Positions 54,437-62,899 of a stretch of DNA of 64,000 bases are shown in pieces. A program made the translations under genes and the position numbers. The stretch covers positions 1,922,001 through 1,986,000 of the forward strand of contig CP089278.1 of the NCBI GenBank assembly GCA_023920165.1, in the 5' to 3' direction. Under the pieces are notes generated by a model, which did no database searches, was not told the DNA's origin, and was given only the letters and a program-made list of their open reading frames with translations. The stretch comes from Curvularia clavata. Its lineage: Eukaryota. Numbering within the stretch: position 1 is the stretch's first letter; the number at the start of each line of letters is the position of its first letter.

Positions 54437-55329
54437 TACATCCAATGCAAGAAAATCATCACGTAACTAATCACTACAATAAGAAATATAAACTGTGTAA
54501 TTATATCTTGATGGATATGCATTGTTCGCAGGCTTTATACTACATAACTCTGATATGAGACCTAAGGGTAGCCCTCGGGCCAGCAAGGCTGAGGATCAGC
54601 ATATTATGTATGAACTTCACATTCAATCCTTGAGATGAGACCTAAGGATTAATCTGAACACTAACGTCCATCCCTACGTGCCGAGACGCACGGTGTAACG
54701 GGACACTTTTTCTTTCTGGTGCCCGGGTTGCACCCACCATACCCAACAATCGATATGTCCAACGTGTGTTCATTTTACAGCTCTTGCTTTTCTAGTGCAT
54801 CATCCTCCGACGCTGGAAGCCGTCTTGTTGACCACGCTGTCGCTCGTTCTGTCAGCGCCGTCCATCGACTCTCCTCTCCTCTAATGCCCCCTCGCTTCTC
54901 CGCGACAGTATATACCTCTACACGGCTCGGTGGGCGAGAAAGAAAGTTAAGATAGCAAAGATCCAGACTGCATGCTTAAAGAGTCGACTTAGAGTATTCA
55001 TCCTGACAGTTTCTCCGCGCGGACGGCAAGATCGTCGAAACGCACATGATCGGCCGTGCGTCCTAAGCGACATTTTGCAGCGGTAGCGTGCTGAGATGTC
55101 TGCAAGCTGTATTGCGCGCTCTGTAGTCAGCCATGTTACCTAACACCCACTTCTAGCATTAGTAAGGTTCATCGTCACGCTATGTGGACTTGTCGTACAG
55201 AGTTGATTAGATCTCTTTACGAGACACCTAGTGTTACGTTAGTAGGACTCACTGCTGCGTGTTACTATATACTTTTAAACGTCACGGCACCTAGCCTTAA
55301 GATTCACACTAGTACACACGAAGATAAAG

Positions 55330-58300
55330 CTATAGGTTCTCGTCCCTGTACTCCGCTCGCCAGGTATTTAGCGTGTTGAGTGACGACTGTGTATCATGGT
55401 GCTTCTCACCAAAGACTTCCCGGCGCAATTGGAAGCATGTTTCCATCAGTGCCAGAGCCTCCTCGCGGCGAGCTTGCGACTGCAGCGTGAAAGCCAGATT
55501 GTTCATGCTGATCAGCGTATGAGGATGTCCCTCGCCGAGCACTCTCGTCTGAGTCTGCATCACCTGCAACTCTAGTTCTTCAGCCTCTTTCCATCGCCCT
55601 TGGCCTCTATACGTCGATACCAGATTAGCCATACTATTCAACGTGTTAGAATGCTCCTCGCCAAGCACTCTCTTCTTAGTCTGCATTACTTGCACCTGCA
55701 GCTCTTCGGCCTCTTTCCATCGCCCTTGATCCCTATACGTCGACGCTAGGTTGCCCATAGTGTTTAGCGTGTCAAGATGCTCTTTGCCAAGTACCCTCAA
55801 GCTTGTCTCTATTACTTGAATCTCTAGCTCTTCCGCCTCTTTCCATCGCCCTTGGTTGCTATACGTCGACGCTAGATTACCCATGTTGTTTAGCGTGCTA
55901 GGATGCTCCTCTCCAAGCACTCTCTTCTGAGTCTGCATCACTTTCACCTGCAACTCTTCGGCCTCACCCCATCGCCCTTGGTCCCTATACGTCGATGCTA
56001 GGTTAGCTACGCTAATTAGCGTGTCAGGATGCTCCTCGCCAAGCACTCTTTTCTCCGCCTGCACCACTTGCACCTCTAGCTCTTCCGCCTCTTTCCATCG
56101 CCCTTGGTAACTATACGTGGACGCTAGGTTACCCATGCTATTTAACGTGTCAGGATGCTCCTCACCAAGCACGCTCTGGTGAGTCTGCATTACTTTCATC
56201 TGCAGCTCTTCAGCCTCTTTCCATCGCCCTTGGTTCCTATACGTCGACGCTAGATTACCCATGCTGTTTAGCGTGTTAAGATGCTCCTCGCCAAGCACTC
56301 TCTTCTGAATCTGCATTACTTGCACCTGCAGCTCTTCGGCCTCGCCCCATCGTCCTTGCTTCCAATACGTTGACGCTAGATTGACCATGCTAGCCAGCGT
56401 ATAAGGATGCTCGTCACCAAGCACACTCTTCCTCGCCTGCGCCACCTGCACCTCTAGCTCTTCCGCCTCTTTCCATCGCCCTTGGTAACTATACGTCGTC
56501 GCTAAGTTGCCTATACTAATCAGCGTGTCAGGATGCTCCTCGCCAAGCACTCTCTTCTGAGTCTGCATCACTTGCACCTCTAGCTCTTCCGCCTCTTTCC
56601 ATCGCCCTTGGTTCCAGTACGTCGATGCTAGATTGCCCATGCCGTTTAGCGTGTCAGGATGCTCCTCGCCAAGCACTCTCTTCTGAGTCTGCATTACTTT
56701 CACCTGCAGCTCTTCGGCCTCACCCCATCGCCCTTGGCCCCTATACGTCATTGCCAGTTTAGCTGTACTATCCAGCGTGTCAGGATGCTCCTCGCCAAGC
56801 ACTCTCTTCTTAGTCTGCATTACTTGCACCTGCAGCTCTTCTGCTTCCTTATATCTTCCATCATTGTACAGACTTGTCGCACATTTCCCTGCAAGATCTA
56901 ACCTCTCCTTGTTACTATCCTTTGTCTGAATATGCGACAGAGTGAATAGAGCATGTGGAAGCAAGCGCCTCCACTTGCTTCTATTATTGTGGTCGTCGTT
57001 CGGAAACACCTCAACTAGCTTTACGATAGCGCGCTGAGTCCATTGTTGGAGCTGTCCCTGAGCTTGTAGTCTAGTACGTAGAGCATCGTGTACTAGTCGA
57101 TGGATGTCCAGTGCTGATTCGGCAGGTCGTCTGGTGACGAGCGCATACTTGTCAAGTACTTTGATGGCATCTTCACGGGTCCGTGGTGAGGCTGCCTCTA
57201 GAATATCAAGCGAGATATCCTTTCGATCCACGCATGCAGCAATAAAAAGATAGTCTACAGTGACTGTATCATTGTTATAGGCTTGGCTTATAGAGAGAGA
57301 TAGTGTAGCAGCTATGGTCTTTCTTAGAACACATTCCTGCTGCTTGCCTTCAGTCAATTCACCGCTACAACTAAGAGCTGCGTCTTTGTGTTGATCTAGC
57401 TGTGCTTGGTACTGTTGCACAGTCATACTACTAGCGTTCATGCACGCTGCCGCTTGTGCAATTGCTAGAGGCAGATACAAAAGCTCTCTTAGCAAGTGCA
57501 TGGCAATCTGTTGCTCAGTGTTCGAAAACGGCGCTGCCAGGCGGCTTTGTAGCATCCTTAGCGCCGTGTCTGCCGTTAGCTCATGCAGCGCTACGACATT
57601 CTGCGGAGCAAGCGCCTCAGCTATGTTACTCTCTGTTGTTGTAAAGATGACAGAACATGACTTAGAGTGCGGCAGAAATTTGGTCAAGTCTGCACTAGTA
57701 GCTTCTGTCGTAGGCAGGCCACTTGGCCGTATGGTAGCGCACTCCACGTTGTCAAGGACTAGCAAACACTGTCGCGTACTTATTGTTGCCACACAGCGTT
57801 CTACGACCTGTTTTATGTCTGCCTGGTCGTCGTCACACCCAGGAATACTAAGCTTCTGCGCAACGTTCGTGTAAGATCGGTAGAGGCTGTTTCTATCGCT
57901 CGCGTCCATCCAGAAAACTGAGCAGCTCCTGCTGTTCTGCTTTGTTCTAAAGGCCGCCTCGAGTGCGAGCTGCGATTTGCCTGTTCCGCTAGGGCCAACA
58001 ATTGCTAGCGTGGTAGTAGTCTGCTTATTGCTAAAGAGCTTCGCTTCTAGCTCTGCAAGGTGTAGTTCGCGACCTACAAAAGACTGGTTTCGTGAGAAGG
58101 GAATAATTGACGGCGCGCTGCCAATTTCCTCGACTTCAGCTTGCAGCCTTCTCAATGCGCTCTCCTTTCCTTCTCCATATGTCGTAGGCATAGCAACGCC
58201 CAGAACTCCAAGTAGGCAATATACAATGTCTTCTTCTTCGGTTGTTCTGCGATTTTCAGCCCAACGTATTCGCTCAGATATGCTAAACTGGTCTAAAGAA

Positions 58301-60883: not shown

Positions 60884-62442
60884 TGAGTGAGTGAGTTGTA
60901 TTTAACGTCTATATATAAAGCCTCCCTTGGGGCATGTAGACGGGCTATGCCTATGACTTGCCGTACTATGCCTAGGATGCCTATTCTTGTTTACATGATT
61001 GTAGTGGTCTAGTAGTGGTCGTTCCGCCTGTTGATCGCCAATACAATGTGCCATAGGCGTGTATCCGCCTCTCGTTGTTATAGCTAATGCTTACTAAGGA
61101 GTGTGTAGTATAGTTGACATAGGAAAGAGAAGAAAAGAGAAAGAGAGAAGAGTGAGAGAAGAAAAGGAGACAAGAAAAGTCTTACCAGTATAGGCTCTAG
61201 TGAGGCCTGCATATTGTACTATAGAAACCTGTGACTTCTAGGAAAGCGGCAAAGTCCTCTGGCTCTTCCCAGAGCTTCTGGAGGTACTTGACTGCTTCGC
61301 TAGGTGTCCTAGGCGGTGCTGGTGGCCGTCTTGGCCATCGCCGGAAGACGTTTACTGTTGTGGTTTTCCGGCATAGTGCGATGTGCAAGGGGGTCTTTGG
61401 GCGCCCGCAGGAGCACTTAAGAGTCGCGTTGTCATGATGGAACTTCCGGTGGTACCATGCAAAGTCTCCATGGCTTGTTCGGATTGCCAGCAGTCTTGCT
61501 AGGGTTGGGCGTGTTAGCTCTAGCTCTTGGGGAGGTCGGGTGGGCTGGTACGGTAGCTTCCACTGGGTGTACCAGTTAGAAAGCTTGCTCTTGGCGCTAT
61601 TCCACCAAGCTGCTCTAGCTATGGCTAGTTGTGCCTTCCTGATCGTGCGTATACCCGATACTGTTGGTTGTGCTGCTAGTCCATATGGAGTAGAAGGTTC
61701 TTTCGCCTCCGCATCTGCGAGGTTGTCTGCTGCTTCGTTGCCTTCAATGTTAGTGTGTCCTGGTGCCCATCGCACCTTGACATTAGGCATTGTGTCCATT
61801 ATCTCCTGACATTGAAGAAACGCCCATTGTGAGGAGTTTGAGGCTGTTCCGCGTAGACACCAGATTACTGAGGTGCTGTCTATACACATATAAACCGCAT
61901 CTGTTGGTCTTGCTATCTGAGCCGCGTGCTGAAGTGCTCTGCATGCCCCAATCGCTTCGGCATCGAAAACATGTGAAAGCGAGTGGAGAGACCCGCGTCC
62001 TGTGGCTATCTTTTCCTGGGCCCGGTAGATGGCATACCCATAGGTGACTCTCTTTTTCCCTTCACAGCGCTGTTCCGATCCATCAGAGAAGATTGTGAGC
62101 GTGTTGCTATCTAGAGATGCCCACCATTCTTTGAATTCTTTCGCAGCTGTTTTCTTCTCTATTCCTAGCGTCGGATCTGTGCGACACCCTTGCGAGAAGT
62201 GCGGCGCTATTAGAGCTGGCCGGGGGATAGCTGGCAGAAGTAGGCCTAACCTCTGGATCTTAGTTCTTGGCTGTTGCCTCTCCCCTACCCTGGTGCCAGA
62301 CTGATTGTGTGGTACGATCGCTCGGTGGGTGAGAGGATGCTGATGGTCTATTGTCTGAAGTCGCAGCGCGAGACGCCACTTAGCCTCTTCAAGTGCGACT
62401 TCTGCTGACGGTACCCCGGCTTCTCTAAAGAGAATTGGAAGG
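60884..62442 (-). mobile_element. 5'-truncated Tad1-like LINE (RNase H and zinc-knuckle end of ORF2, 3' UTR, (ACTC)n tail) with 15-bp TSD
   Basis: IFSDGS, VFDAEAIG, CIDSTS, VRWAPGHTNIEGNEAADNLA, CSCGRPKTPLH; stop at 61197. TSD ATCGCTAGCGCGGAG at 60869-60883 and 62443-62457. Confidence 0.92.
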
Positions 62443-62899
62443 ATCGCTAGCGCGGAGAAACTGTCGGGATGCGCACACTTCCTACCTTATATTAAGCTTT
62501 CGAGACTGCAGTCTCAAATGCTGCTATCTTAGTTTCTCCCTTAGCCTACAGAACTCTCTATGAATGTCGGTCGTCGCGAACAAACAAGGGGGTATCAGAG
62601 GAGAGTCGATGGACGGCGTTGGCAGAACGAGCGACAGCGTGGTCAAGAACACGCCTCTTAGCGTCGAAGGCTGATGTACTGGAAGAGCGAGAGCAGCAGA
62701 ATAGATGCACACTAGACAGGTTCATTTATAGGCATGATTGGTACAATCCGGGCACCCGAAAGAAAAAGTGTCCCGTTACACCGTGCGTCCCGGCACGTAG
62801 GGATGGACATTACTCTAATATTTTTGCCTCCACCTGCCAGACCTCTCACATGCCATATTAGTACTCAGTAGCCCCCTTGAGTTCATACGCTTCGGAAGG

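Follow-up and report, generated by a model that had tools for sequence, protein, structure and literature searches.

An NLR gene enclosed by long inverted arms with pogo-type termini in Curvularia clavata, a probable member of a receptor-carrying, non-autonomous transposon family

The NLR gene and the arms that enclose it

We analysed a stretch of 64,000 nucleotides from the fungus Curvularia clavata (assembly GCA_023920165.1, contig CP089278.1, positions 1,922,001 to 1,986,000; hereafter referred to as the window, with positions counted from its first letter). At 54664-62810 the window contains a gene for an NLR (NOD-like receptor) with HET, NB-ARC and TPR domains, which is enclosed between two long inverted repeats (hereafter referred to as the arms, and the whole as the unit; Table 1). 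The frame of 1173 amino acids is free of stop codons and has the layout of fungal HET / NB-ARC / TPR proteins, with an N-terminal HET domain, a central NB-ARC NTPase and C-terminal TPR repeats. The Pfam matches had E values of 8e-14 for HET, 5e-13 for NB-ARC and 1e-157 for TPR_10, the TPR_10/TPR_12 matches falling into 12 stretches. At the DNA level, the TPR array (55360-56919) is composed of 11 in-phase units of 126 bp, which are 61-81% identical to the reference unit.

The gene is under purifying selection. In 21 of 21 pairs of copies, the ratio of non-synonymous to synonymous substitutions (dN/dS) was 0.15-0.30, at synonymous divergences (dS) of 0.25 to 1.2 (HET/NB-ARC part). The arms also enclose about 450 bp of the gene's own upstream DNA. 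The other frames of at least 100 amino acids inside 54664-62810 either overlap the NLR gene or belong to two nested insertions, and no transposase of the unit's own is present among the frames of this length. A preliminary description of this DNA had reported a single intact HET-NB-ARC-TPR gene between the arms and a unit of about 5.1 kb net of nested insertions; we recovered the frame with all three domains, and the same net size for a unit that now measures 8.1 kb. Its further statement that there is no transposase holds for the interior of the unit, but a matching transposase gene 226 bp away had been overlooked.

The arms were delimited by a repeat search, by BLASTN and by alignment. The repeat search of the window returned an inverted pair of 216 nt at 82% identity (54662-54877 / 62597-62812), together with further collinear inverted pairs at 54874-54906/62573-62605, 54948-54972/62507-62531, 54999-55020/62450-62471 and 55013-55106/60790-60883. 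BLASTN of arm against arm gave 241 bp at 79.7% identity (E = 1e-57) and, across a nested retroelement, 111 bp at 72%. We then excised 60884-62457 in silico, that is, the retroelement fragment and one copy of a 15-bp duplication, and aligned the arms over 483 columns, of which 335 were identical, 130 carried substitutions (88 transitions) and 18 were gap columns. Identity was 96% in the first 50 columns and 48-84% at deeper positions. Each arm is about 480 bp long and finishes exactly at a TA: on the left, the homology starts after ...cacTA with ACGTCCATCCC (which begins ACGTCC), and on the right it stops with GGGATGGACAT (which ends GGACAT), followed by TActc. The 33-nt terminus matched three times in the window and never in 100 shuffles, and it had no match in viral_contigs.

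These results bear out the arms as first described (54664-55125 against 60775-62810 minus the retroelement), including their near-identity on the outside, their patchier inner parts and their sharp ends at TA; the suggested removal of the retroelement in silico gave the 483-column alignment above. We also considered the arms as conserved regulatory DNA of the NLR gene and ruled this out: they are inverted with respect to each other, end at TA, and have termini in common with a transposase-encoding element.

Table 1. Features of the unit and of the neighbouring element, in window coordinates
Feature	Position	Strand	Basis or remark
Pogo/Fot1-type element, candidate transposase source	52475..54438	+	DDE_1 open reading frame and terminus match
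TA, left copy of target-site duplication	54662..54663	.	adjoins left terminus
Left arm, long terminal inverted repeat	54664..55125	+	outer ~105 bp common to pogo-type element; inner part arm-specific
Cargo NLR gene, HET / NB-ARC / TPR, single exon, 1173 aa, intact	55330..58851	-	open reading frame, Pfam, selection test
NLR upstream (promoter-side) region, part 1	58852..59000	-	homologous to upstream region of loci L009 and L003
Nested DDE_3 (Tc1/IS630-like) element, 38-nt inverted ends, 438-aa open frame	~59001..60469	-	repeat search, Pfam
NLR upstream region, part 2	60470..60774	-	comparison with related loci
Right arm, inner piece	60775..60883	-	repeat search, BLASTN, alignment
Nested retroelement fragment, RNase H open frame, (TGAG)n-like end	60884..62442	-	Pfam; 15-bp duplication on both sides
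Right arm, outer piece, terminus ...GGGATGGACAT	62458..62810	-	repeat search, BLASTN, alignment
TA, right copy of target-site duplication	62811..62812	.	adjoins right terminus

The retroelement fragment is framed by its 15-bp duplication (60869-60883 = 62443-62457). The DDE_3 element divides the upstream region of the gene. A contig of sequencing run X3, which derives from a second organism, joins 59000 directly to 60470; this is a precise empty site of the DDE_3 element, and the X3 organism thus has the unit without that insertion. Over 61208-62141, within the retroelement fragment, X3 cover was zero, a lack of cover that is not evidence of absence. The DDE_3 element is bordered on both sides by CATG/GCATG, not by the TA expected for Tc1/mariner elements.

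Shared termini, related copies and an exact empty site

Besides the two arms, a pogo/Fot1-type element 226 bp to the left of the unit carries the terminus; this third copy in the window forms its right end, at 54438. Its open reading frame (52558-54210) is intact, encodes 550 amino acids from the first ATG and contains HTH_psq, HTH_Tnp_Tc5 and DDE_1 in Pfam; the transposase is 100% identical over 545 amino acids to a C. clavata protein that represents a 16-member protein cluster. The right end of the element (54274-54438), which finishes ...GGGATGGACGT before a TA, aligns with each of the arms over the outer ~105 columns and diverges from them farther in. On the left, the element retains only the inner 67 bp of its inverted repeat (52475-52541 is the reverse complement of 54274-54340, at 100%). 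These termini, common to the unit and to an element with a DDE_1/CENP-B-type transposase, fit a non-autonomous pogo/Fot1 derivative. The inner ~375 bp of the arms are not in the pogo-type element, yet they are conserved among the copies, and could hold extra binding sites or regulatory sequence. Relative to neighbouring bins, the summed contig depth in run X2 was about 55x over the pogo-type element and about 2.5x over the arms, a depth that is not to be equated with copy number.

To survey related loci, we used the N-terminal 640 residues of the NLR as a query against metagenome contigs. This query matched 361 stretches, among them 280 that encode relatives, and we retained the 80 best loci; all were fetched through the NLR, and the search covers NLR-linked arms only. 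Eight of the 80 (L001-L007 and L009) reach an identity of at least 68% with the query. Upstream, L003 and L004 end too soon to show an arm; the other six, which have at least 700 bp of upstream DNA, all carry the arm upstream of the NLR. The terminus itself lies within five of these six, preceded by TA in L001, L002, L005 and L009 and by TG in L007, while the arm of L006 is cut by the contig end, so that its terminus falls outside the contig. Neither arm nor terminus matched in the other 72 of the 80 loci, all of which are at most 61% identical to the query.

The arms of all copies are collinear over about 480 bp. The outer flanks, by contrast, have no similarity to one another or to those of the window, and the arm thus recurs at unrelated sites; that of L001 adjoins a DDE_3 transposase frame. 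Divergence proceeds in step along the copies, with identities of 68-88% for the arms and 73-90% for the 5′ part of the NLR. The NLR frame is intact in the window, L001, L006, L007 and L009. As a check for repeat-induced point mutation, we counted private changes in L002, L005, L006 and L007; C>T plus G>A exceeded the reverse transitions about 2:1, with no preference for CpA.

The contig of L002 (4399 bp) contains a second complete unit of 4057 bp (217-4273), in which TA and ATGTCGATCC on one side and GGATCGACAT and TA on the other enclose the NLR. Terminal inverted repeats and TA at both ends are thus common to the window unit and the L002 unit. Over 487 bp, the upstream arm of L002 matches its downstream arm at 79.5% identity. 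The outer flanks of L002 directly adjoin each other in a paralogous, 77%-identical sequence on contig L052, where the corresponding site lies in an uninterrupted frame of 673 amino acids for a DDE_1/Tc5 pogo-like transposase. When the unit and one TA were removed from L002 in silico and the remainder was translated, it gave a gap-free match of 102 residues to residues 333-435 of the L052 frame, with the excision point inside the alignment. Thus, the arm-NLR-arm structure of L002 entered a transposase coding sequence as one block, bounded by its termini and with duplication of TA. A small indel at the empty site, seen in a first nucleotide alignment, was dropped; the protein alignment is free of gaps. 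On L052, the intact transposase frame (1489-3510, minus strand) stands head to head with a 592-aa HET-domain frame (3394-5172, plus strand), the two overlapping by about 100 bp; here, too, a HET gene and a pogo-type transposase are immediate neighbours.

For the window copy itself, we placed contigs of runs X2, X3, X4 and X9 on positions 50000-64000. X2 matches both junctions of the unit without difference; it may be the source strain, so that this match is not independent. X3 covers 54826-55680 (inner left arm and 3′ end of the gene) with 4 differences and 57774-58675 (5′ part of the NLR) with 2. Eight X3 contig ends leave the right-arm terminus into sequence unlike the window flank, four of them carrying the terminus variant seen in L002, so that the X3 organism has further copies of the arm. 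Neither as DNA nor in six-frame translation did the flanks of the window copy (54439-54663 and 62811 onward) find a relative in the window or among the 80 loci, so that a paralogous empty site could not be built for this copy; no frame runs across its empty junction made in silico.

Farther out, 51868-52334 and 63076-64000 have very high summed contig depth in four of the four runs and no similarity to each other, and single contigs of X2 and X3 join 52186/52229 straight to 63378/63380. These two segments may be the halves of one high-copy repeat that was split by an 11-kb block comprising the pogo-type element and the NLR unit; between the high-depth repeats, we found no inverted ends or duplication that would define such a block. 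An AT-rich stretch (51001-52000, GC content 0.33) precedes this nest of transposons. The part of the window at 28588-51382 resembles a secondary-metabolite region, with a highly reducing polyketide synthase at 33339-41045 (KS, AT, DH, MT, ER, KR and ACP domains), a subtilase at 28588-31503, a cytochrome P450 at 47262-48968 and a sulfotransferase at 50549-51382.

Interpretation of the unit and of its spread

We interpret 54664-62810 as a copy of a non-autonomous class II family in the pogo/Fot1 group of the Tc1/mariner superfamily that carries one complete NLR, and we put the probability of this reading at about 0.82. The family would be characterised by inverted arms of about 480 bp, insertion at TA, the lack of a transposase, and a single HET/NB-ARC/TPR NLR with some 450 bp of upstream DNA. 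A pogo-type DDE_1 transposase supplied by autonomous relatives, for instance by the element that ends at 54438, would bind the ~105-bp shared termini and excise the arm-NLR-arm unit as a whole, which would then be reinserted at a TA; the receptor gene would thereby be copied to new sites, possibly between species. This transposase is a candidate for the mobilising enzyme, and the window copy presumably arrived by transposition.

The preliminary description had likewise proposed a non-autonomous, NLR-carrying element mobilised in trans, to be given up if the arms proved to be independent, unpaired repeats, if orthologous NLRs lay armless at the same locus and if there were neither an empty site nor a second arm-bounded copy. 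None of these refuting outcomes was observed. At the level of the family, its proposal is supported by L002, by the recurrence of the arm and by the shared termini, and mobilisation in trans is what we infer from them. The arm stands upstream in six of six homologues, with flanks that all differ; L002 (217-4273, TA at either end) provides a second copy bounded by arms; and the exact paralogous empty site is that of this relative, not of the window copy.

Several observations weigh against this interpretation. With an overall identity of 69% between its arms, the window copy may no longer move. Neither an empty-site allele nor a joint of 54663 to 62811 was among the 15 of 45 joints listed for X2, X3, X4 and X9, which in itself tips the balance in neither direction. 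The neighbouring pogo-type element is without its left outer terminus (about 98 bp are missing). In L002 and L005, the NLR has two in-frame stops each, so that the cargo of the proven insertion is dead. A downstream arm occurs in one of the three contigs that reach at least 1 kb past the NLR (L002), L005 and L007 being without it. Moreover, the metagenome contigs are short assemblies, and, since the comparison loci came by way of the NLR, arms may also occur alone or with other cargo. L007 (186-3411) has an intact 899-aa NLR, an upstream arm that is degenerate, with internal deletions, and no downstream arm, and is followed by DSBA-like and thioesterase genes; it may be a copy that was fixed in place after losing its ends. 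Taken with the stops in L005 and L002, it indicates that copies decay in two ways, by loss of the arms or by loss of the gene.

The alternative that survives best grants that the transposon family is real and takes the window copy for an immobilised relic, a fixed NLR locus that is maintained by the host and can no longer be excised. We give it somewhat less than an even chance. The window copy is old, as is evident from the low overall identity of its arms and from the two later nested insertions; the arms have also accumulated indels, and the insertions have swollen the unit to its present size. The second organism (run X3) has the same NLR and inner arm at 99.5-99.8% identity, and L007 provides a precedent for an intact NLR that has outlived its arms beside ordinary genes. 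On the other hand, the outer 50 bp of the window arms are still 96% matched, the terminus common to the transposase-encoding element is retained, the NLR frame is intact, and X3 carries a unit without the DDE_3 insertion, be it at the window site or at another.

It is very improbable that arm-NLR-arm spreads as a block by other means, either by segmental duplication or as a passenger of a larger element (a Starship, for example), with the shared termini as a mere remnant. NLRs are frequent cargo of Starships, as far as the published accounts drawn on here go (PMC9156397, PMC13449251, PMC9594970), and the window copy lies in repeat-rich surroundings. However, in L002 the inserted block starts and stops exactly at the termini, has duplicated TA and lies inside a coding frame, which is the signature of Tc1/mariner-type insertion, and no tyrosine-recombinase frame was found within the unit. 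Least probable of all, and contradicted by the present results, is a coincidence in which a common short repeat inserted twice, independently, around a resident NLR: a third terminus stands 226 bp away in another element and X3 has arm ends with other flanks, but in both the window and L002 the two arms break off at a common inner point, about 480 bp from the terminus, the same arm precedes all six close homologues amid differing flanks, arms and NLR diverge together, and the L002 unit interrupts a coding frame as a single block.

Returning to the transposon family, we asked how widely its cargo is distributed. A protein search returned 3050 relatives at E values up to 0.001. Over the first 640 residues, identity is 69-85% for the best 120 of these; they stem from metagenomes and from many genera of Pleosporales, and among them several genomes have several NLR copies. 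We constructed a tree of 51 rows, comprising the window protein, the 41 named proteins of the best 120, six armed metagenome copies and, as outgroup, three armless homologues; 79 unnamed proteins of the best 120 were left out. The arm state was read in the window and the metagenome contigs, the named genomes having entered as proteins. A clade of 48 rows (SH-aLRT 100) excludes the armless homologues and has armed copies in both of its main subclades; the window NLR groups with a C. clavata paralogue. Family labels are distributed almost at random on the tree: they require 27 changes, where the minimum would be 8 and shuffled labels take 32.2 on average.

As a housekeeping reference, we used exonuclease V (Exo5), which in the window is 78-80% identical to Bipolaris proteins, as befits a member of the Pleosporales near Curvularia and Bipolaris. 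In 66 of 78 species pairs, the best NLR identity was higher than that of exonuclease V, a comparison that uses one reference gene, takes the best value among paralogues, which favours the NLR, and includes proteins picked by likeness to the query. In the most extreme pair, Plenodomus tracheiphilus (P0018) and Lizonia empirigonia (P0077), the NLR N-termini are 96.8% identical over 630 residues, compared with 69.1% for exonuclease V, and both NLR genes are on contigs longer than 0.5 Mb. The scrambling of Pleosporales families in the NLR tree and these identities hint at horizontal spread, although the test is a weak one. A broader proposal, for which the tree and the identity comparison speak, strikes us as doubtful: that a whole clade of Pleosporales HET/NB-ARC/TPR receptors is transposon-borne, has spread horizontally between fungal families on this pogo-type vehicle, and has kept the receptor intact because, besides the host, the element itself benefits from it (for example, through allorecognition or through killing once hyphae have fused).

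Comparison with known systems

Copy number differs widely among fungal NLR repertoires, which are often located near repeats, and, apart from the giant Starships, the route of their dispersal is unclear. A cut-and-paste element of 4-5 kb with one complete, selected NLR offers a testable route by which receptors may be duplicated and relocated, and perhaps also transferred between species. Small DDE-type transposons that faithfully carry a functional host-type gene are rare in eukaryotes, and this would be one of them, and the question of whom a cell-death receptor serves, the host or the element, becomes open to experiment.

The closest structural relatives of the unit are the non-autonomous derivatives of pogo/Fot1 elements, which are usually short, internally deleted elements or miniature inverted-repeat transposable elements without genes. 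Like them, the unit has inverted termini and a TA duplication, lacks a transposase of its own, and shares its termini with a DDE_1 element that has CENP-B/Psq-type DNA-binding domains. It differs from the usual derivatives in its arms of about 480 bp and in its complete host-type gene under selection.

Pack-TYPE elements have been described in plants, and they usually hold gene fragments. The unit resembles them as a non-autonomous element with terminal inverted repeats (TIRs) that contains captured coding DNA and would depend on a transposase in trans; these are the properties given for Pack-MULE and Pack-CACTA in the account we draw on (PMC8903248). Whereas fragments are typical there, the cargo of the unit is a whole gene, namely a complete 1173-aa frame with three domains and a dN/dS of 0.15-0.30, in a fungus and in another superfamily.

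Starships are giant cargo elements of Pezizomycotina that have been reported to capture and mobilise NLR genes (PMC9156397, PMC13449251, PMC9594970). They measure tens to hundreds of kb, contain many genes and encode a DUF3435 tyrosine recombinase, whereas the unit comprises about 4-5 kb, one gene, no recombinase and DDE-type termini. With 8.1 kb (5.1 kb net), the window copy falls far below that size range, and the Pfam matches of its long frames were HET/NB-ARC/TPR, DDE_3 and RNase H only, the scan for a captain gene being limited to the unit.

ToxhAT is a multi-gene cargo transposon of 14 kb from Pleosporales wheat pathogens, which is bounded by inverted repeats of 74 bp and is associated with a hAT-like transposase; its cargo includes an NLR-type Patatin-TPR gene, and the element has been linked to horizontal transfer between species (PMC6737239). 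It has in common with the unit that it is a class II, inverted-repeat-bounded element of Pleosporales with non-transposon cargo, including an NLR-type gene. The unit is set apart, by description only, by its single HET/NB-ARC/TPR gene, its ~480-bp arms, its pogo-type termini and its TA duplication. A full-text literature search, with subscription journals and supplements outside its scope, returned no small pogo-type element with a complete NLR as its sole cargo. Cargo-carrying non-autonomous DNA transposons were already known; what appears to be new here is a small unit of the pogo type in which the cargo is an NLR and nothing else.

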